Below, one piece after another: positions 21,311 to 64,000 of a DNA stretch of 64,000 bases. The position numbers and the translations under genes are program-made. The notes beneath the pieces were generated by a model, which did no database searches, was not told where the DNA came from, and saw nothing but the letters and a program-made list of their open reading frames with translations. The DNA comes from a virus. How positions within the stretch are numbered: the first letter of the stretch is position 1; each line of letters opens with the position of its first letter. The stretch spans positions 43,656-107,655 of the IMG/VR virus record IMGVR_UViG_3300028883_000036. One strand, given 5' to 3'.

Positions 21311-23482
21311 TTATCCACTCTCACTACTTGAACTAACTGAACTACTACTTGAACTTATAAAATAATCATTTATTCCAACATAACATGAAAATGATTCGCT
21401 TGAACTTTCAGAGCTTGAACTTTCAGAGCTTGAACTTTCAGAGCTTGAACTTTCAGAGCTTGAACTTTCAGAGCTTGAACTTTCAGAGCTTGAACTTTCA
21501 GAGCTTAAACTACTCAAACTGCTTGAACTTATAGAGCTACTACTTGAACTTATAGAGCTACTACTTGAACTTATAGAGCTACTACTTGAACTTATAGAAC
21601 TTGAGCTACTACTGCTTGAGCTACTTGAACTTGCTACACATGCCCAATTTCCAGAAACAAGAGTAAAATTATCAAATTCTCCATATGCATATGGTTTGTT
21701 AGTATAATTTTTAACATAAAGACCAAATTCTGTATCAATATTAGAACCAATATTAGTTCCACTTGCTATTTGTGACCATGTTCCACCAGTATTTCTATAA
21801 TATCCTTGCCATTGATTTCCTGTTCTTGCTATTCTAAATCCCCCACTTGTTTGAGTAGTACCAACAGCAGTATTTGTTACAACAACACCATTTTTATAAG
21901 TTGTTTCTACATAAGTTGTATTATGACCTTGAATATAAATTCTTAATCTATTATCATCATTATCTATTTCTCTAGCAACAAGTTCTAATATCCATCCAGC
22001 AGCAGACGGAGCAGGATTTTCAAGATATGGATTACTTGCTGATGGTAGATACCAATCTACTTGAGCATCAAAATCACTTCCTGATACAACATACCATCTA
22101 GAAATAACACCACTTATATTATTATCAAAATCTACTGATGCTTTTAATCTATTTCCACTTATAGTAGGTGAACTCATAACAATACCACTTCCACTTGGAT
22201 TACTTATAGTATAATCCCATTTATGTACATCTGGATCACTACCATCTATACCATCAAAATTATCATTTGGTGATACAAAACATGAACTACTTGAACTCTT
22301 TGAACTTGAACTTACAGAGCTACTAGATATAGAATCTGAACTACTGCTTATAGAACTTGAGCTTGAACTTACAGAACTTGAACTCAATGAACTTGAAGAA
22401 GAACTTACAGAGCTTGAAGAAGAAGAACTTTCAGAACTGCTTGAGCTTGAGCTTGATTCACTTGAGCTTGAAATTGAACTACTTGATTCTGAAGAAGAAC
22501 TCAAAGAACTTGAACTTTCAGAACTACTTGAAACTGAAGTTGAAGAACTTGATTCTGAAGAAGAAGAACTTGATTCTGAAGAAGAACTCAATGAACTTGA
22601 AGAAGAACTTGAAGAAGAACTTGAACTCAATGAGCTTGAAGAAGAACTTGAACTTGAACTCAATGAGCTTGAACTGCTTGAACTGAAAGAAACAGAACTA
22701 CTTGATTTTGAAGAAGAACTCACAGAAACAGAACTACTTGATTCAGAAATTGAACTTGAAGAACTTGTAGAACTTGAGCTTGAACTTATACTCAATGAAA
22801 ATGATTCACTTGAACTAGAAGAACTTTCAGAACTGCTTGAACTTTCAGAACTGCTTGAGCTTGAGCTTGATTCACTTGAACTTGAAATTGAACTGCTAGA
22901 TAGAGAACTTGAACTACTGCTTGAACTTGAACTAGAAGAACTTGAGCTTGAGCTTGAGCTTGAAGATGAAGAAATAAATCTTTCTTCAAGTAAATCTTGT
23001 AATTCAATTAAACAACTATTTTTATATTTTCTTTTTGCTCTTGCATCAGGACCAGGATCAGTTTGCACAACAATAGTACAATTAATAGGTTCATTTAAAA
23101 ATACAACAGCATTTCTACTACTACCAAAATAAATTCTTTTAAATTTAAATTCTTCTCTTGTTTCTGTTTTATATCCTGTTATCTGAACATATATTTGGTC
23201 TAAATAATGTGGTACTTCAATCCAATAAGTATCTCCTGATGGTGTCCAATCAGTTATAGTAAAACTAAAATGTTTATAAAAAACACCATCACCTGAAAAT
23301 ACAGGAAAAGCAGCATCTTTTAATGAATCAAATAAAGTAAATAATTGATTATTAGATATTACTTTATTAAATCTATTATTTGAATCATTTAATACAGCAA
23401 TATCCATTCCATGAGCACAACCGAATATATCACTTGAGCTTGAACTAGATGTTGATGATGATGAAGAACTTGAACTTGCCAT
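21311..23482 (-). CDS. Poly-serine virion protein with ConA-like domain
   Basis: About 230-aa central Ser tract plus N- and C-terminal tracts; DFDAQVDW...DDNRLRIY domain shared with 19165..21300. Confidence 0.65.
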   Translation of the reverse strand: MASSSSSSSSTSSSSSSDIFGCAHGMDIAVLNDSNNRFNKVISNNQLFTLFDSLKDAAFPVFSGDGVFYKHFSFTITDWTPSGDTYWIEVPHYLDQIYVQITGYKTETREEFKFKRIYFGSSRNAVVFLNEPINCTIVVQTDPGPDARAKRKYKNSCLIELQDLLEERFISSSSSSSSSSSSSSSSSSSSSSSLSSSSISSSSESSSSSSSSESSSSSESSSSSSESFSLSISSSSSSTSSSSSISESSSSVSVSSSSKSSSSVSFSSSSSSSLSSSSSSSSSSLSSSSSSSSSSSSLSSSSESSSSSSESSSSTSVSSSSESSSSLSSSSESSSSISSSSESSSSSSSSESSSSSSSVSSSSSSLSSSSVSSSSSSISSSSDSISSSSVSSSSKSSSSSCFVSPNDNFDGIDGSDPDVHKWDYTISNPSGSGIVMSSPTISGNRLKASVDFDNNISGVISRWYVVSGSDFDAQVDWYLPSASNPYLENPAPSAAGWILELVAREIDNDDNRLRIYIQGHNTTYVETTYKNGVVVTNTAVGTTQTSGGFRIARTGNQWQGYYRNTGGTWSQIASGTNIGSNIDTEFGLYVKNYTNKPYAYGEFDNFTLVSGNWACVASSSSSSSSSSSSISSSSSSISSSSSSISSSSSSISSSSLSSLSSESSSSESSSSESSSSESSSSESSSSESSSSESSSESFSCYVGINDYFISSSSSSVSSSSESG
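21399..21504. repeat. 15-nt tandem repeat encoding (SSSES)n
   Basis: About 7 copies of cttgaactttcagag. Confidence 0.85.
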
Positions 23483-23499
23483 TTAAATATTCCTTATCT

Positions 23500-48490: not shown

Positions 48491-48886
48491 ATGAGCAACG
48501 ATCATGATTTATTAATTGAAGTAAAAACAGCATTTGATACTAAAATGAGTTCTTTATGTTCAACTATAACTGAATTGAAAGCAGATATAAAAGAATTAAA
48601 AAATAAACCATATCCATGTATAGAACAATCAGATAGATGTAACGATAAATTTGAAGAAATAAATAAAAAAATGGATAATAGACCTAAATGGAACCAAATA
48701 GTAACTATACTTCTTATTTTAGTTGGAATAACATCAGGAGTAATAGGATTTAATTTTAATCAAGATATAAATAGAGATGAAAAAATTAATATAGTAACAG
48801 AAAAAGTTATTAAAAATGAACATGCAATAAAGTATTTAAATACCTTTAATGGAATAACTGATACTACTAAAAAAATAAAACAATAA
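48491..48886 (+). CDS. Single-TM coiled-coil membrane protein (holin/lysis accessory)
   Basis: Coiled coil, then IVTILLILVGITSGVIGF; first gene of the lysis module. Confidence 0.55.
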   Translation: MSNDHDLLIEVKTAFDTKMSSLCSTITELKADIKELKNKPYPCIEQSDRCNDKFEEINKKMDNRPKWNQIVTILLILVGITSGVIGFNFNQDINRDEKINIVTEKVIKNEHAIKYLNTFNGITDTTKKIKQ

Positions 48887-48895
48887 TGGCGAATT

Positions 48896-49324
48896 ATGTT
48901 AAAAAAAGTTTATTTGTTTAGAACTACAACCAGTAACCAAGGAACAAAAGGTATATTAGCAACAGATGGATTTGATTGTAAAACATTAGAACTTCCTTGG
49001 AGAAATAATAAAAGAAACATATCATGTATACCTACTGGTGAATATATAGTTAAAATAAGACAATCTCCGAAATTTGGTAGAATATATTGGATTACTGATG
49101 TAAATGGAAGAAGTTGGATACTTATGCATAGTGGAAATGTTGCTGGTGATATATCAAAAGGATTCAGAACTCATGTAAATGGATGTATATTAGTAGGAAA
49201 ACAATTTGGTGAATTATATGGACAACAAGCCATACTAAATTCAAGAATTACTTTAAGAAAATTTATGAATTATATGAAATATGAACCATTCAAATTAAAA
49301 ATAATTGGTGAACATATAATATAA
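48896..49324 (+). CDS. DUF5675-family putative peptidoglycan enzyme (endolysin candidate)
   Basis: T.G.L...CKTLELPWRNN.RNISCIP.GEY, V.GRS.ILMH.GN, GCILVG. Confidence 0.85.
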   Translation: MLKKVYLFRTTTSNQGTKGILATDGFDCKTLELPWRNNKRNISCIPTGEYIVKIRQSPKFGRIYWITDVNGRSWILMHSGNVAGDISKGFRTHVNGCILVGKQFGELYGQQAILNSRITLRKFMNYMKYEPFKLKIIGEHII

Positions 49325-49334
49325 GGAGAATATC

Positions 49335-49988
49335 ATGTTAATAGAAACTATACTTGGCGGTGTGACAGGAATTATAGGTAATGTTGTTGGTGCATTTTTC
49401 AAACATAAACAAGCAAAAATAGAACTTGAAACAAAAAAATTAGAATTCAGTCATGAAGCTAAAATGGTAGAACTTGAAACCAAAGCAATGATTTTAGAAG
49501 CAAAAGCTAATATAAAAATTACTCAAGCACAAGCAGAAGGAGCAATTGAATTAGAAGATGCCAAAGCTTATATAGAATCTCAAAAAGAAGGAAACAAATC
49601 ATTATTTAATAATAAATGGATTGATTCTTTATTAACTGTAGAAAATAAATGGGCAAAAATAATTACTATTCCAGTAGCAAGTATAATAGCTATCCTATTT
49701 GGGTTTGTTGATTTTTTAAGAGGATTGATTAGACCAGCATTAACAATTTATCTATGTGGTATAACTACATGGATTACATGGATGGCATGGAAAATAATGA
49801 ATTTAGAAGGACTAACCATTACTGCATTACAAGCAACAAATATATTTAATGATGTAACAAGCATAGTAACTTATCTTACTATTTCTTGTGTTACTTGGTG
49901 GTTCGGTGATAGAAGAATGTCAAAATCTATAATGGAAATAAAAGGATTTGATGCAAAAAAACTAGATAATGAAATAAATATAAAATAG
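49335..49988 (+). CDS. Holin-like multi-TM protein
   Basis: GLIRPALT, VTWWFGDR motif of 3TM holins. Confidence 0.75.
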   Translation: MLIETILGGVTGIIGNVVGAFFKHKQAKIELETKKLEFSHEAKMVELETKAMILEAKANIKITQAQAEGAIELEDAKAYIESQKEGNKSLFNNKWIDSLLTVENKWAKIITIPVASIIAILFGFVDFLRGLIRPALTIYLCGITTWITWMAWKIMNLEGLTITALQATNIFNDVTSIVTYLTISCVTWWFGDRRMSKSIMEIKGFDAKKLDNEINIK

Positions 49989-49999
49989 AGGAATAAAAT

Positions 50000-50371
50000 A
50001 TGAATTTAATAGATAAATACTTAGGAGAAGGATATTCACAAAATACACCATCAGAAATAATAACAGCTATACAAAGAAAAGGGAAAAAAATAGCAAATGA
50101 TCCCTTTGATATTAATAAAGCATATTTTAATTTAGATGGAACTGTATATAAAGCAGGAGTTGGTAAAGGTGTTGTCAATATGGGAGACATAAAAAGTTTT
50201 ATTAAAAAGGTAAAAACTGGAAAATTAAAAGCTAAATTAGTTGAAGGTAAAACATCATCAACACAAATGCAATGCATGGAATGTGGTCATAAATTCAAAA
50301 AGAAATTAGGAAGAAATACATTTGAAGTGAAATGTCCGAAGTGTAAAGGATATGATACTGAACCAGTATAA
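50000..50371 (+). CDS. Zn-ribbon protein with MNLIDKYLGE leader
   Basis: CMECGHKF...KCPKCKG. Confidence 0.75.
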   Translation: MNLIDKYLGEGYSQNTPSEIITAIQRKGKKIANDPFDINKAYFNLDGTVYKAGVGKGVVNMGDIKSFIKKVKTGKLKAKLVEGKTSSTQMQCMECGHKFKKKLGRNTFEVKCPKCKGYDTEPV

Positions 50372-56383: not shown

Positions 56384-56806
56384 ATGAATGAACATGAAGA
56401 ATTAAAACAAATATTTGATCAACTTAAAGAAGAACATAAAATAGAAGAATTAGCTACATTTTCTGATCTTGATATAGGGGAAAAACTACAAAAGAACGAA
56501 ATGATGGTTATAAAATACAAAGAAATGTACTATAATGAACTCAATAAATATGAAATTCTTGAAAGAAAAATGGATGCTTTAAAAGGAATAAGATACAAAT
56601 ATTATAAATTTGATGATGAAAATGAGTTTAATAAAAAAGAAATAGAAGATTATTGTCTTCCTTCTGATCCTCAAATTATTCAAATAAAAAAGATAATGTT
56701 AAAACAACAAATTAAAGTAAGATTCTTTGATATGTGTTGGAAAGCATTTAATTCAATGGGATGGTCAATGAAAACATTTTCAGATAGGGAAAAACATGGA
56801 TTATAA
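56384..56806 (+). CDS. uvsY: UvsY-like recombination mediator
   Basis: About 140-aa helical protein, KY..Y..E, RYKYY, D..I, F..MGWSMK; adjacent to uvsW. Confidence 0.75.
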   Translation: MNEHEELKQIFDQLKEEHKIEELATFSDLDIGEKLQKNEMMVIKYKEMYYNELNKYEILERKMDALKGIRYKYYKFDDENEFNKKEIEDYCLPSDPQIIQIKKIMLKQQIKVRFFDMCWKAFNSMGWSMKTFSDREKHGL

Positions 56807-58202
56807 AGTAGAATTAACATTATGTAATAATTATAAAATAAGAATAAAAAGCAATCATTATACTTATGTAGAAAAAATGTCAGAAGAATTTGCTATCCAT
56901 GTAAAAGGATATTATTGGATGGGAAAATATAAATCTGGTATGTGGGATGGAAAAACTCATTTTATAACTGAGGCAGGATTAATGCCTTATGGACTACTTC
57001 TTGATTTCATTAAAAAAAGCAAAGAATTATTTCCAGAAGTTAAAATATGTCCTGATGATGGGGTAAAAAATTTATTTAAAGCAGATAAAATAGAAATAAA
57101 TTATGATCTATCTTTATATCCAAGACCATATCAAAAAGAAGCAATAGAATTTTGTTTAAAATATTCAAAAGGAATAATAAGAAGTTCTACTGCTAGTGGA
57201 AAAAGCTTAGTAATATCTTATATATTATATAATTTAATAAAAAATAGAGCAATAACTAATGTTAGAAAATGTTTAATTATTGTTCCATCTACACAACTTG
57301 TAGAACAATTTAGAACAGATATGATTAAATATGGTCTACCTGAAGCAATGATAGGTAGAGTATATACAGGCCATAAAGATTGGGATAAACATATTGTTAT
57401 ATCTACATGGCAATCACTCAAGAACAATCACAAAAAATTACCACTGTTCCATGCAGTTATTGGAGATGAATGCCATCAGGTAAAAGCACATGAACTAAAG
57501 AATATATTCTCAAAACTAAAATGCAACTATAGATTTGGTTTTACTGGTACAATGCCTAATCATATATCAGAACAATACAATATCAAATCATTCTTAGGAC
57601 CAATTCTAAAAGAATTCGGTTCAGGTTTCCTTGCAGAAGAAGGATATATATCCAAATGTAATGTTAAAGTATTAAAAATACCATACCCTGATGGAACAAT
57701 AGCAAAAGATTATAAAAGTATTAAAGATGAATGTTTTAATGACTCAAACCGATTAAACCTTATAGCTAAAATTATAAATGAAATTAATGATAATATACTT
57801 CTACTTGTATCATATATAGATGAAGGGGATAAACTAGAAAAACTTATCAACAGAAGAACAGATAAAAAAGTTGTATTTTTATCAGGAAAAGATAAAGTAA
57901 ATATAAGAGAAGAATGGAGACAAAAAATTATAAATGAAAACAACATTGCTTTAATTGCAACATACGGTATAATGGCAGTTGGTATAAATATCCCCAACCT
58001 AAAATATTTAATTCTTGCATCACCAACCAAATCAAAAATAAGAACACTTCAAAGTATAGGTAGAACCCTACGATTACATAAAAATAAAATAGATGGAGCA
58101 ACAATATTTGATCTTATTGATGATGTTAAATTTCTAAAAAAACATGGAGAAAAAAGAATTAGCTATTACGAAAATGAAGGATTTAATATTGAATATTTAT
58201 GA
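56796..58202 (+). CDS. uvsW: UvsW-like SF2 helicase
   Basis: KYKSGMWDGK, PRPYQ, TASGKS, IVPS..LV.Q, STWQS, DECH, GFTGT, GINIPNL, QSIGR.LR. Confidence 0.95.
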   Translation: MDYKVELTLCNNYKIRIKSNHYTYVEKMSEEFAIHVKGYYWMGKYKSGMWDGKTHFITEAGLMPYGLLLDFIKKSKELFPEVKICPDDGVKNLFKADKIEINYDLSLYPRPYQKEAIEFCLKYSKGIIRSSTASGKSLVISYILYNLIKNRAITNVRKCLIIVPSTQLVEQFRTDMIKYGLPEAMIGRVYTGHKDWDKHIVISTWQSLKNNHKKLPLFHAVIGDECHQVKAHELKNIFSKLKCNYRFGFTGTMPNHISEQYNIKSFLGPILKEFGSGFLAEEGYISKCNVKVLKIPYPDGTIAKDYKSIKDECFNDSNRLNLIAKIINEINDNILLLVSYIDEGDKLEKLINRRTDKKVVFLSGKDKVNIREEWRQKIINENNIALIATYGIMAVGINIPNLKYLILASPTKSKIRTLQSIGRTLRLHKNKIDGATIFDLIDDVKFLKKHGEKRISYYENEGFNIEYL

Positions 58203-60549: not shown

Positions 60550-61056
60550 TTATTTTTTATTACCTTTTCTCCAAGAAGTCGAACCTTTAGCAGTATCTAT
60601 AAGCCTTGCACAAAACCCTTTAGCTTTATCCTCATCCCATCCTGATTTGCCTTTCATTCTTATCACACATTTATCAAAAAATCCATGTTCTTTAGGATCT
60701 GCACCAATTGTTTTACCAAATTTTTCTACTGATTTTTTCCCCCATCCAGCAGCTTCAATTGCTTTTTCATTCAACTCATCATCATTAAGAAATTCATTAG
60801 TTTCACGAATAAGATTTTCAACTTCCAATTTATCTAAAATATCTAATTCTTCTGATTCAGGAACCATTCTAATAAATCTTGGATTTCTACCCGCTTTTAC
60901 TGCTTTTTTTATTCTTTTTTCAGCTTCTTGTTTTGTATATCTTTTTCCTTTATCATCAAATTTAGCATCATCTAAACTCATCCAATCATGAGTAATACCT
61001 TTTATTTCTACTCTATATTTTTTTTGTTCATTTAAATATTTATCTTCTTTATTCAT
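60550..61056 (-). CDS. Head/internal-type protein, leader MNKEDKYLNE
   Basis: Several internal LxE sites; C-terminal FFDKC..M......A.GFCA motif. Confidence 0.65.
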   Translation of the reverse strand: MNKEDKYLNEQKKYRVEIKGITHDWMSLDDAKFDDKGKRYTKQEAEKRIKKAVKAGRNPRFIRMVPESEELDILDKLEVENLIRETNEFLNDDELNEKAIEAAGWGKKSVEKFGKTIGADPKEHGFFDKCVIRMKGKSGWDEDKAKGFCARLIDTAKGSTSWRKGNKK

Positions 61057-61447
61057 CTTTCCCCCATAGTTCAGGTATATAAGCACCTGATTTTTTATCG
61101 AATTTTAATCCTTTTCTTCCTAATATATTAGTTTCTGTTGGATTATCGAATTCATCTTCTATGGGTTCTTTTCTTGCTAAATCAATAATATCCCTTTTAG
61201 TAGTAAAACCTGTTCTTGTTTGACCAGAACCAATAATATTAGTAGTAGTGTTAGAAACATAAGAACCACCAACTACAGAAGATTCATTTTTTATAGGAAC
61301 ACATACTTTCTTTACTTTATCATATATAGTACCTTTAGGACATTTACCACCAATTACATCTATACTTCCTTTAGCAGTATTAGTAGCTACATCTCCTGCT
61401 ACAGTCATATCAGATATCATAATGTCTAATTTTTTTAATAAGTCCAT
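61049..61447 (-). CDS. Protein with leader MDLLKKLDIMISD and CPKG..Y......CVP motif
   Basis: KCPKGTIYDKVKKVCVP. Confidence 0.7.
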   Translation of the reverse strand: MDLLKKLDIMISDMTVAGDVATNTAKGSIDVIGGKCPKGTIYDKVKKVCVPIKNESSVVGGSYVSNTTTNIIGSGQTRTGFTTKRDIIDLARKEPIEDEFDNPTETNILGRKGLKFDKKSGAYIPELWGKDE

Positions 61448-61449
61448 AA

Positions 61450-61929
61450 TTATCCCATTTTAGAATCAACTTTCACATTAGAAAGTTTTCCTTTCGGTAA
61501 ATGACCATTTTTAACATGAGAAGCAATCATATCTTCAAATTTTTTCTTTGCTGCTTTTTCATCATTACCAACTACAGGTAATGTGACTTTTTTCTTACCA
61601 GCACTACCAGCATCAAAAATACCTGAAAAATTAAAAATTGATTCATTTATATCTTCTTTCATTCCTTTAGCTGTATTCCAAATTTTTTTCATATCAGAAT
61701 CAATATATTTCAGAAAATCTTTCGATTTCATTCCTTTTGTAGGCACCATAGCATGACCAATATATTCTCTACTATTTAAATCTCTAAATTGAATTTTAAC
61801 TTCTTTATTTCCTGGTTTCCATAATACCTCTACTTGAGTTTTTTTATCCATCATTCTATTAGATATACCCATATCATTATACCATTTAGTTTCATTTATA
61901 ACACCATCAATTTTTTCTGTTATATCCAT
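61450..61929 (-). CDS. Protein with leader MDITEKIDGVINE
   Basis: Two small domains, each preceded by INE. Confidence 0.7.
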   Translation of the reverse strand: MDITEKIDGVINETKWYNDMGISNRMMDKKTQVEVLWKPGNKEVKIQFRDLNSREYIGHAMVPTKGMKSKDFLKYIDSDMKKIWNTAKGMKEDINESIFNFSGIFDAGSAGKKKVTLPVVGNDEKAAKKKFEDMIASHVKNGHLPKGKLSNVKVDSKMG

Positions 61930-61939
61930 TACTTCCCCC

Positions 61940-62194
61940 CTATGCCTTTACCTTTCTAAATCCCCAATCAAACATTCCAATTTGCATCATCATTTTTTGA
62001 GCATCATTTTTTTTATCAAATTTAACTGTTAATGAATTTTTGGCTTTATCAATAATTTTAAATCCTTTACGAATAGTTTTATTAAGCCAATCTTCTAAAT
62101 GTTTTTGATCATTTTTAGGAACATCCACTTGTAAAGCCATTTCATTCATATCATCTTCTTGTAATATAAAATCAATTTTATCTGTTATGTCCAT
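61940..62194 (-). CDS. Protein with leader MDITDKIDFILQE
   Basis: Shared leader; GGGGGA RBS. Confidence 0.7.
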   Translation of the reverse strand: MDITDKIDFILQEDDMNEMALQVDVPKNDQKHLEDWLNKTIRKGFKIIDKAKNSLTVKFDKKNDAQKMMMQIGMFDWGFRKVKA

Positions 62195-62778
62195 TATTCA
62201 TCCCCCTTTCCTTTTCTCATTCTCTTTTTTTCTCCTGCTCCAACTGGAACACATTTCTTTTGAATAGGTCAGTATTTCTCACCTTCAGGACATTTTTTTT
62301 CATCTTGTTCTAATATATTATGAAATTTAGATTTCTTTTTTATTTCTTCAATCTTTTTTTCAATCTTTTTTTCATTTATTTCTTCTTTTATTTCTTCTTC
62401 TTCCTCATATACACTAGATACAGATATATCTACTTTTGGTATTAAATTAGAAAGTTCTTCTACTATATCTTCTATTTTAGCTTCTACTTTTATTGGATTT
62501 TTAATTTTAATTTTATCTTGCCAAGGAATTAAATATGTATCTATAGCAATCAATTCTAATTTAGCATCTAAAAGACTACCATCTTTTAATTTATTATTTA
62601 TTTTAGATATAGGACTTACTTCAACCACAATATCACCATTATCAATTTTTATAGGAAATCCATATTCCATTCCTTCAACAACAATTCTCATTGATCCTTT
62701 AAGATCTTGTGGTTGTACTCCACTCAAACTTATCTTAAATCTAAGTTTCTTAGATTCATTTATATTTATACTAATCAT
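62194..62778 (-). CDS. Probable selenoprotein, 194 aa, with UGA read-through at 62269-62271 (ORF track stops at 62269)
   Basis: ..KKCPEGEKY-UGA-PIQKKCVPVGAGEKKRMRKGKGDE-TAA; read-through TAA overlaps next ATG (TAATG); SECIS-like hairpin. Confidence 0.65.
62236..62251 (-). promoter_or_regulatory. Candidate bacterial SECIS element
   Basis: UGUUCC-AGUU-GGAGCA hairpin; stem starts 17 nt and loop 23 nt after the UGA; G then U in the apical loop. Confidence 0.55.
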
Positions 62779-62993: not shown

Positions 62994-64000
62994 TTAACTA
63001 GAAAATGTTTCTGTTCTTGTTTCAGCAAGTTCATCATCAGAAAGTACTCTATTAAAAACAACAAATTCATCAATTTTTCCATCAAGATGATAATCACCAA
63101 CTAATGTATATCTTCCAACAGTAAAATAAATACCAGGAGTCAATATTGACATTTGATTTGAAAATTGTCCTGATGTATTTATAATATATGAACCAGCAGT
63201 ATCATCCCAAACTTTATATTTATAATCATAAGTATCTCCATCATATGTCACTTCCCAATGATACCATCTACCTGTGGTAACTTGGACTGAAGAATCAAAG
63301 GTTTCAGCACTTCCACCATTATTGTATCCAACAAATAAGAAAGGATAATATGAAGTTGTAACTGCTTTCACACCAATTGCATAAGAACGTTGATTTGTAG
63401 CTGTATTATAAAGGCAAATTAATCCAAGTGTAGCTGTTAACGATTCAAATTTTACCCATCCACAAAAAGTAAAAGTTCTATTTGTAGTTCCTTGTTTACC
63501 AGGAAAATTATCAGACAAATTAACATTTTGTATGGTAAAATATTCTGAATTCTGCTTTTCTAAATCAGCACATGCAGAACCTTCTTTATAATCAACTGTT
63601 TCTGTTCCAACAGTATTTATGTCTTCAAGAGTATTTGTTCCTTTTGAATCAGTAGTTAAAGCACCTGATTCAAAACGCCAAAGTGCAACTGCATCTGTAA
63701 AGATATTTCCGCTTACACTTTCAGAGCTTGAACTTCCAGAGCTTGAACTTGAACTTTTAGAGCTTGAAGAAGAAGAACTTGATTTTGAACTGCTACTGGA
63801 ACTTTTAGAGCTTGAAGAAGAACTTGAACTTTTAGAGCTTGAAGAAGAACTTGAACTTTTAGAGCTTGAAGAAGAACTTGAACTTTTAGAGCTTGAAGAA
63901 GAAGAACTTGATTTTGAACTGCTACTGGAACTTTTAGAGCTTGAAGAAGAACTTGAACTTTTAGAGCTTGAAGAAGAACTTGAACTTTTAGAGCTTGAAG
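62994..64000 (-). CDS. Poly-serine plus LamG/ConA-like protein (5' end beyond window)
   Basis: Frame stays open upstream of 63518 (AVALWRFESGA..DSKG.NTL) into a Ser tract running to the window edge; FTFCGWVK, GRWYH, VGR, GKIDEF..FNRVLS..E. Confidence 0.85.
   Translation of the reverse strand, partial: SSSKSSSSSSSSKSSSSSSSSKSSSSSSKSSSSSSSSKSSSSSSSSKSSSSSSSSKSSSSSSSSKSSSSSSKSSSSSSSSKSSSSSSGSSSSESVSGNIFTDAVALWRFESGALTTDSKGTNTLEDINTVGTETVDYKEGSACADLEKQNSEYFTIQNVNLSDNFPGKQGTTNRTFTFCGWVKFESLTATLGLICLYNTATNQRSYAIGVKAVTTSYYPFLFVGYNNGGSAETFDSSVQVTTGRWYHWEVTYDGDTYDYKYKVWDDTAGSYIINTSGQFSNQMSILTPGIYFTVGRYTLVGDYHLDGKIDEFVVFNRVLSDDELAETRTETFSS
63720..64000. repeat. 27-nt-based tandem repeats encoding (K)SSSSSSSS
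   Basis: Repeated ttttagagcttgaagaagaacttgaac units. Confidence 0.85.

Follow-up and report, generated by a model that had tools for sequence, protein, structure and literature searches.

A phage gene on the minus strand (62194..62778) carries an in-frame UGA at codon 170, which is probably read as selenocysteine (Sec) through the SelB/SECIS pathway of the host. Conservation of the UGA, its alternation with Cys, conservation of the coding sequence that follows, and the presence and features of a hairpin downstream are direct observations. From these sequence comparisons the UGA is inferred to be decoded, an inference that does not extend to the residue inserted. There is no expression or proteomic evidence for the Sec assignment, and incorporation of selenium has not been shown.

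The window, i.e. the whole 64-kb stretch of DNA that was analysed, forms the end of a 107.7 kb virus record with 27% GC that is about 51% complete (CheckV). The phage is uncultured and comes from marine sediment. Nearly all genes of the window lie on the minus strand, and all coordinates given here refer to features on that strand.

The reading frame continues beyond an in-frame UGA

Under translation table 11, the frame beginning at 62778 stops at the TGA at 62269-62271, in the middle of the segment K-C-P-E-G-E-K-Y-stop-P-I-Q-K-K-C-V-P, as the original prediction had stated. Reading through this codon, which is followed by C (UGA-CCU), adds 24 sense codons up to a TAA at 62194-62196, whose last A is also the A of the ATG of the next gene (TAATG). 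The predicted continuation to this junction is present in the sequence; the predicted addition of 25 codons counted the stop, and the gap filled is 74 nt and not 75. The complete read-through gene has 193 sense codons (169 + UGA + 24). Its 24-codon extension (62197..62268), which is translated only if the UGA is decoded, supplies the rest of a 16-residue module, C-P-E-G-E-K-Y-U-P-I-Q-K-K-C-V-P (62245..62292; predicted to be a beta-hairpin; U, the proposed Sec), and a basic Gly/Lys/Arg tail ending in GDE. The gene downstream (61940..62194) encodes 84 residues, begins M-D-I-T-D-K-I-D, and is preceded by a purine-rich GGGGGA run at about 62201-62206, to which a ribosome-binding role is assigned by sight only.

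The codons for C-V-P-V-G-A form the hairpin that had been proposed (62236..62251). It consists of a 6 bp stem, UGUUCC/GGAGCA, with one G-U pair and an AGUU loop that starts 23 nt past the UGA. A nearby paralog (61049..61447) contains the same module with identical spacing at 61295-61342, which agrees with the prediction, but has Asp rather than Cys at the UGA column. Its C-V-P is not followed by a hairpin, and relatives of this paralog have either Asp or Cys at the column.

The TGA is genuine and TGA is elsewhere an ordinary stop

In the probable source metagenome run, the TGA site is covered at a depth of 20 without variants (contig-level data). Another marine-sediment study, independent of the first, yielded a contig that matches 62189-62339 without a difference, TGA included. 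Together these exclude an assembly error, which had been named as an outcome that would refute the proposal, and chance is ruled out by the retention of the TGA in 25 different related sequences. An error of assembly or sequencing, or a gene recently inactivated by mutation (pseudogene), has nothing to support it as an explanation of the TGA beyond the bare presence of a stop. Identical contigs obtained from the runs of two independent studies, and retention of the TGA in the 25 sequences from many samples, have already refuted it, and we give it practically no weight.

About 14 other genes in the window stop at TGA, with read-through tails of 0-9 codons and frequent ATGA overlaps, in line with the earlier remark that TGA is an ordinary stop in this genome. 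The single other 24-codon TGA read-through tail in the window simply enters the next gene. TGA is otherwise a normal stop in related contigs as well. A scan of the whole record revealed one credible in-frame TGA in 107 kb and no other candidate Sec site, and coding density is already about 90% under table 11. These data bear on the possibility that TGA is a sense codon throughout the phage or its host (Trp in code 4, Gly in code 25), or that stops are recoded in part of the genome. The low GC content (27%) would be compatible with such a code, and the record does have a suppressor-type tRNA, but its anticodon is CUA and would read TAG, not TGA. Apart from the ordinary TGA stops, the coding density and the solitary in-frame TGA, this possibility is opposed by the absence of TGG and the presence of just one, unrelated Gly at the UGA column, and by the lack of any UCA tRNA in the record or in 1 Mb of fetched related loci. 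Global recoding is thus hardly credible. Site-specific recoding, as originally proposed, withstood this comparison: no genome-wide reassignment of TGA was detected, and the hairpin and the alternation with Cys speak in its favour.

Homologs carry UGA or Cys at the same column

When the read-through product served as a protein query, 16 relatives were found. Four database homologs with 62-72% identity terminate exactly at the residue preceding the UGA. The database homolog P0005 has Cys at the UGA column and continues without interruption into P-I-R-K-K-C-V-P-V-G. IMG/VR loci were then considered that had been retrieved through the conserved N-terminal domain, without the UGA as a criterion. 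Three orthologs among them, L007, L008 and L009, are only 34-38% identical to the window's protein in the N-terminal domain. Each has TGA in the corresponding position, and beyond it a conserved frame whose tail varies by in-frame indels and which meets the next gene at a TAATG junction, as in the window. The proposal that the residues past the UGA are coding is borne out by these loci. Another member of the window's own family (L022) has TGT at the column. Assignment of the UGA to a Cys position is accordingly supported by P0005 and L022, and not by the paralog from which it had been argued.

To sample the module more widely, a degenerate DNA pattern for its 16-residue motif, CPxGxx[YWF]-X-PxxKxCVP, with TGA, TGT and TGC weighted equally at X, was scanned against IMG/VR, JGI metagenome contigs and GTDB genomes. 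It matched 40 distinct sequences: 28 with TGA, 7 with TGT and 5 with TGC. Two matches (L061 and L041) look like chance matches and were left out; hairpin comparisons were made with 25 distinct TGA and 11 distinct Cys sequences. With the codon left unrestricted, the column in IMG/VR was occupied by Asp in 51 cases, TGA in 7, Cys in 2, and Gly and Ser in 1 each, and Trp was not found. The single Gly belongs to an unrelated sequence. This composition indicates that the module in the form CPxGxx[YF]-D-PxxKxCVP is widespread in phages and that one sub-lineage changed the Asp to Cys or UGA. That Asp predominates at this position in phages is not what one usually sees at a Sec site.

Pairs of Sec and Cys members occur inside at least three or four families; outside the window's family, Cys copies are L029 and L033, L028 and L046, and L062. 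The alignment of the UGA column, which had been suggested as a check, therefore gave the alternation of Cys with TGA in several protein families. Conservation of several residues of the module is partly circular, because the retrieval pattern fixes their codons. The evidence free of this circularity is that from the loci found by their N-terminal domain, from the long frames downstream of the UGA and from the hairpin contrasts. In GenBank phages, no DNA or protein match was found to the region, the Sec protein or the paralog.

The module occurs in several phage protein families

The UGA/Cys form of the module was found in at least five protein contexts (families A-E). Family A is the Ig-like family of the window, with the module at the C-terminus. 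Members of family B consist of a short leader and the module (UGA in L010, Cys in L028 and L046). Family D has a conserved N-terminal part of 70 residues, and in family E the protein starts M-N-K-K with the module immediately after. Leaders of the type M-D-x-x-x-K-I-D start several of the module-bearing families and also the genes neighbouring the one in the window.

Family C is the most informative with respect to coding. The module comes 13-27 codons after the start, the UGA occupies codon 14-27, and the frame then stays open for another 160-314 codons, so that these proteins would be abolished if translation stopped at the UGA. Frames of this length are not expected by chance in DNA of about 33% GC. 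A C-terminal domain, phrog_28651, is common to the members with UGA and those with Cys (L029, L033), and there is no start codon in the conserved stretch directly past the UGA. Public predictions begin the family-C proteins at an internal Met downstream of the UGA. In the protein atlas a family-C protein matched only unnamed viral clusters, below 0.9.

A genuine stop at the UGA, with the 169-residue protein as the only product and the following 74 nt as an untranslated regulatory spacer for the next gene, has to be weighed against these observations. Some family members (L003, L004 and L011-L014) have no module and end just ahead of its position, which means that a shortened protein might be functional. 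The conserved end of the extension also overlaps the ribosome-binding region of the next gene, and gene callers end the homologs at this codon. Such a spacer would leave unexplained why the second half of the module shows protein-level conservation, its indels keeping the frame and Cys orthologs running on without a break, and why other families have 160-314 codons past the UGA which are homologous to the Cys forms and have no early start. We consider a genuine stop very unlikely.

A SECIS-like hairpin follows the UGA

All 25 distinct TGA sequences have a compact hairpin with a stem of 5-8 bp, a loop of 3-5 nt and a loop start 23-26 nt past the UGA. The 5' arm is made of the Cys-Val-Pro codons. 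The loops in the TGA copies are AGUU, GUU, GGA, GGG, GGU, GUA, CGGGU and UGGAU, and G is found at loop position 1 or 2 in 25 of 25 TGA copies versus 2 of 11 Cys copies (Fisher p = 6e-7). The stem is missing from most Cys copies. The one Cys copy that keeps it (L062) has the loop AAUU, and in the Cys orthologs of family C base changes in the 3' arm disrupt the stem. The mean free energy of the best hairpin is -7.2 kcal/mol in the TGA group and -4.6 kcal/mol in the Cys group (Mann-Whitney p = 4e-4). The expectation that the hairpin would be conserved with the UGA is thus met, every TGA copy having it and the Cys copies being degraded.

The stability of the hairpin was compared with that of synonymous recodings of the same protein sequence. 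The TGA group gave a mean z of -1.8, with 48% of the sequences at p<0.05, and the Cys group a mean z of +0.13, with 0% at p<0.05. Hairpins of the TGA group are more stable than the protein sequence demands, and those of the Cys group are not. The window hairpin taken singly is not more stable than its synonymous recodings (z -0.55, p 0.36), and the amino acids of its sub-type (C-V-P-V-G-x-G) largely fix the hairpin by themselves.

The published bSECIS model specifies a loop of 3-9 nt, an upper stem of 4-16 bp, a distance from UGA to loop of 16-37 nt, a G in the first two loop positions that is mostly followed by G or U, and a minimum free energy of -7.5 kcal/mol or lower (PMC13188914). Loop and stem are within these limits both in the window (4 nt and 6 bp) and in the family (3-5 nt and 5-8 bp), as is the spacing, which is 23 nt for the window copy and 23-26 nt across the family. 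The loop G is present in the AGUU of the window as in all 25 TGA copies. Energy is borderline: the window hairpin alone gives -7.0 to -7.3 kcal/mol against the limit of -7.5, a 63-nt stretch beginning with the CCU next to the UGA reaches -8.3 kcal/mol, and the hairpins of the family range from -4.6 to -9.7 kcal/mol. In the window the hairpin is largely fixed by the peptide it encodes and is borderline in energy; the case for Sec rests on the family and not on the window copy alone. A search of Rfam matched no SECIS family and returned sub-threshold noise only.

Three hairpin registers coexist. A single consensus structure on the ungapped alignment of the 25 sequences was dropped for this reason, and the registers were analysed one by one. 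Within each register 88-93% of the cells are paired, versus 31-69% when the 3' partner is slid. The Val wobble is the only freely variable base of the 5' arm; it shows double-sided changes and is never unpaired, its pairs being C-G/U-A/U-G, A-U/U-A and C-G/U-A/A-U/U-G in the respective registers. The hairpin persists with differing amino acids encoded in the 3' arm (PVGxG, PEGQ, PAGQG, PLER, PLED). Only one pair in each register covaries on both sides, and the controls obtained by shuffling are modest (16-28 of 500), because the 5' arm is frozen by the Cys-Val-Pro codons. Counting pairs with a free choice of register gave 25/25 for TGA and 10/11 for Cys copies, which does not separate the two groups and was not used as evidence.

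Proposed decoding of the UGA

Purposeful reading of the UGA could also insert a residue other than Sec. A near-cognate tRNA may insert Trp, Cys or Arg, with the hairpin and the weak UGA-C context promoting read-through, or SelB may deliver Cys. Delivery by SelB of a Cys-charged tRNA with a UCA anticodon has been described in some bacteria. Conservation of the UGA, the open frame and the hairpin show that the codon is read and not the identity of the residue. Of the Sec machinery, searches for tRNA-Sec, selB and selD found none in this record or in four related large ones, all five being only 38-79% complete. Matches to the tRNA-Sec model (RF01852) in the related records are ordinary Leu, Ser, Tyr and Gly tRNAs. 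Against insertion of another residue, Cys takes the place of the UGA in homologs, and Trp and Arg are never seen there. The hairpin has the bSECIS features, including the loop G that is read by SelB, and the Cys copies have lost exactly those features; moreover, a UCA-anticodon suppressor tRNA was not found in the record or in the 1 Mb of related loci. Decoding with a residue other than Sec is therefore regarded as unlikely, though it cannot be dismissed.

For the Sec reading, the following sequence of events is proposed from the arrangement of the gene. The mRNA encoding C-V-P-V-G-A in the module would fold into the 6 bp hairpin with its loop 23 nt past the UGA, and host SelB carrying Sec-tRNA(Sec) would bind this hairpin on the mRNA under translation. 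Which SECIS a SelB recognises is species-specific. Delivery of Sec by SelB would compete with release factor 2 (RF2) at codon 170, inside the module. Where Sec is inserted, translation would proceed through 24 more codons to the TAA overlapping the next ATG and yield the 193-residue product; where termination wins, a 169-residue product would result. Both the decoders, SelB and Sec-tRNA(Sec) from a host that uses Sec, and the identity of the residue as Sec are inferred, and the host has not been identified. The only match in prokaryote genomes (GTDB) was a 1.6 kb contig in a Woesearchaeota MAG, identical to L007. Woesearchaeota are not taken as the host, because the contig is too short and the binning too weak.

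Read-through had also been suggested to tune translational coupling to the genes downstream. This remains possible in family A with its conserved TAATG junction, but it cannot account for the UGA in general, since the UGA lies early in long proteins in other families.

Predicted structure and possible role of the protein

AlphaFold2, run with a 24-sequence alignment, predicts an N-terminal Ig-like beta-sandwich at residues 1-95 (62494..62778; pLDDT about 90), which contains an EYGFP motif. It is followed by a Glu/Lys-rich linker at residues 100-150 (62329..62481) that is predicted to be disordered (pLDDT <50) and is variable in length among homologs. The module is modelled as a beta-hairpin with strands at 167-170 and 175-178 (pLDDT about 80), and residue 170 closes the first of these strands. 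The protein would thus comprise an Ig-like sandwich, a charged disordered linker, a Cys-Pro-x-Gly hairpin module and a basic tail. Foldseek matched the sandwich to Ig-like domains of phage connector, neck and baseplate proteins and to uncharacterized proteins of uncultured tailed phages. The predicted fold suggests, and does not prove, a particle-associated protein, and it is also all that points to the late or virion-region protein originally proposed.

No family was found in Pfam or PHROGs for the window's protein or its small neighbours, nor for the Asp-type marine module proteins. The Asp paralog of the window and L114 gave sub-threshold matches to Pfam CBM_14 (16.8 and 18.7 bits; curated cut-off, 22.1), at profile positions 28-49. 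The module resembles the C-terminal 'CPxGxxF[DN]...C' motif of this peritrophin-A domain in sequence and spacing, and most phage copies have the Asp. It has only 2 of the 6 Cys residues of the domain and scores below the cut-off, so the similarity is taken as the resemblance of one hairpin and not as membership. As a guess, residue 170 could be redox-active or could form a reduction-resistant selenylsulfide with either of the Cys residues on its two sides, the protein being particle-associated and the phage an inhabitant of anoxic sediment.

Discussion

To our knowledge, Sec insertion has been seen as a cellular trait, and the host enzymes captured by poxviruses are the only viral cases. The phrases 'phage selenoprotein' and 'phage-encoded selenoprotein' are absent from about 8.4 million full texts. 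In the literature searched there was no selenoprotein of a bacterial virus, and 'viral selenoprotein' was used of eukaryotic viruses alone. A review of the prokaryotic selenoproteome from 2026 does not mention phages or viruses (PMC13188914). The viral selenoprotein literature (e.g. PMC6769590, PMC1802603) concerns viruses of eukaryotes, whose selenoproteins include the glutathione-peroxidase homologs of poxviruses. Those cases have in common with the present one a UGA-Sec protein encoded by the virus and the use of the host Sec machinery. They differ in being captured host enzymes with a eukaryotic SECIS and SBP2, whereas here a bacterial-type element within the reading frame occurs in a phage-specific protein family.

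The closest likeness is to bacterial selenoprotein genes, of which E. coli fdhF, with an in-frame SECIS read by SelB, is the prototype. Shared features are an in-frame UGA followed by C, a small stem-loop directly downstream within the coding sequence, a loop G followed by U or G, and a spacing of 23-26 nt inside the published 16-37 (PMC13188914). Cys homologs exist in both, and outside the Sec site TGA serves as a normal stop. In contrast to the bacterial genes, the gene described here is viral and would have to borrow SelA, SelB, SelD and tRNA-Sec from its host. The phage protein is no known redox enzyme; its 16-residue module belongs to proteins of unknown function and recurs together with the hairpin as a unit in unrelated protein contexts. 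The phage stem is also short and of borderline stability.

Large phages are known to reassign TAG or TGA in late genes by means of their own suppressor tRNAs. As in those phages, the present gene is complete only if a stop is read as sense. Their genes contain many in-frame stops each and are accompanied by a matching suppressor tRNA, whereas here there is one UGA in 107 kb, at a fixed column and with a local RNA signal. What is known is therefore the bacterial mechanism; what is new is its use by a bacterial virus and a phage-specific module, carrying its own SECIS, in several families.

Module and hairpin together would make up a compact unit of about 60 nt that occurs, with UGA or Cys, in at least five phage protein families. 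From this a broader proposal may be drawn, which is tentative and which we hold to be doubtful at present: that T4-like and jumbo phages of marine sediments possess a portable Sec cassette of about 60 nt (Cys-x6-Sec-x5-Cys) whose own codons are the SECIS, and that it has spread over at least five families. Host SelB would be hijacked to place selenium in particle-associated or injected proteins, e.g. as a selenylsulfide surviving in a reducing, sulfidic habitat, and infectivity would depend on selenium and on a Sec-using host.

If the Sec reading is true, gene callers systematically truncate or split genes with this UGA module. A clue to host range would follow too, as only a Sec-decoding cell could serve as host. 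With the SECIS contained in its own codons, the module would amount to a naturally occurring Sec tag of very small size, of interest for selenoprotein engineering. It would mean that phages exploit the SelB pathway of their hosts, and selenium supply and the Sec capacity of the host would become determinants of phage fitness in sediments.

Module-bearing proteins and their annotation

In family C, the module-bearing proteins with UGA near the N-terminus (L024:956-1510, minus strand, and relatives alike), public gene predictions begin at an internal Met 3′ of the UGA. The N-terminal module is absent from databases because these predictions start after the UGA. The conserved C-terminus of the family matches phrog_28651, the function of which is unknown.

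In its Asp form (CPPGFKYDPVQKVCVP and variants), the module occurs widely among marine phage contigs of 33–37% GC. At L072, L075, L094 and L138, and at some 50 other loci of IMG/VR, it is embedded in long proteins with a high Pro/Thr and Gln/Lys/Glu content, for which neither a Pfam nor a PHROG family was found. A 654-residue protein (L114:5777-7738, plus strand) carries an Asp-type module flanked by strongly acidic stretches and by unusual repeats of Tyr, Pro and Gly (YPYPYYGKYPYPYY...).

One copy, L067 (contig CBFCXS010000229.1; 1.6 kb), is identical to the phage gene L007 and retains the TGA. The contig is assigned to a 'Candidatus Woesearchaeota' MAG, the sole host-type label on any copy; this placement is probably a binning artefact.

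Genomic surroundings of the proposed Sec gene

Immediately upstream of the Sec gene lies a minus-strand gene (62994-64000, continuing past the window end) encoding a very long, near-perfect Ser/Lys repeat (S-S-S-K-S-S-S-S...) followed by a globular C-terminal domain of ~170 residues; no PHROG family was found for this protein. Two small plus-strand islands (48491-50371 and 56384-58202), with a 468-residue ORF among their genes, break the otherwise minus-strand gene array of the window.

ARAGORN called a tRNA with anticodon CUA, of the amber suppressor type, on the plus strand of the whole record (G000 23421-23496), outside the window and ~20 kb before its start. TAG terminates 3 of the 51 plus-strand ORFs of the record, as against 22 of 110 on the minus strand. 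From this plus-strand scarcity and the tRNA, local TAG read-through may occur in the record. The CUA tRNA does not decode the TGA of the Sec gene.

A leader, M-D/E-x-x-x-K-I/L-D-x-x-L, is common to the small neighbouring genes (61940-62194, 61450-61929 and 61049-61447, all minus strand) and several module-bearing families, being present also in L027, L028, L042, L048, L062 and L063. This leader is similar to those that target proteins to the capsid or are cleaved by a protease, and in some families it immediately precedes the Sec/Cys module.
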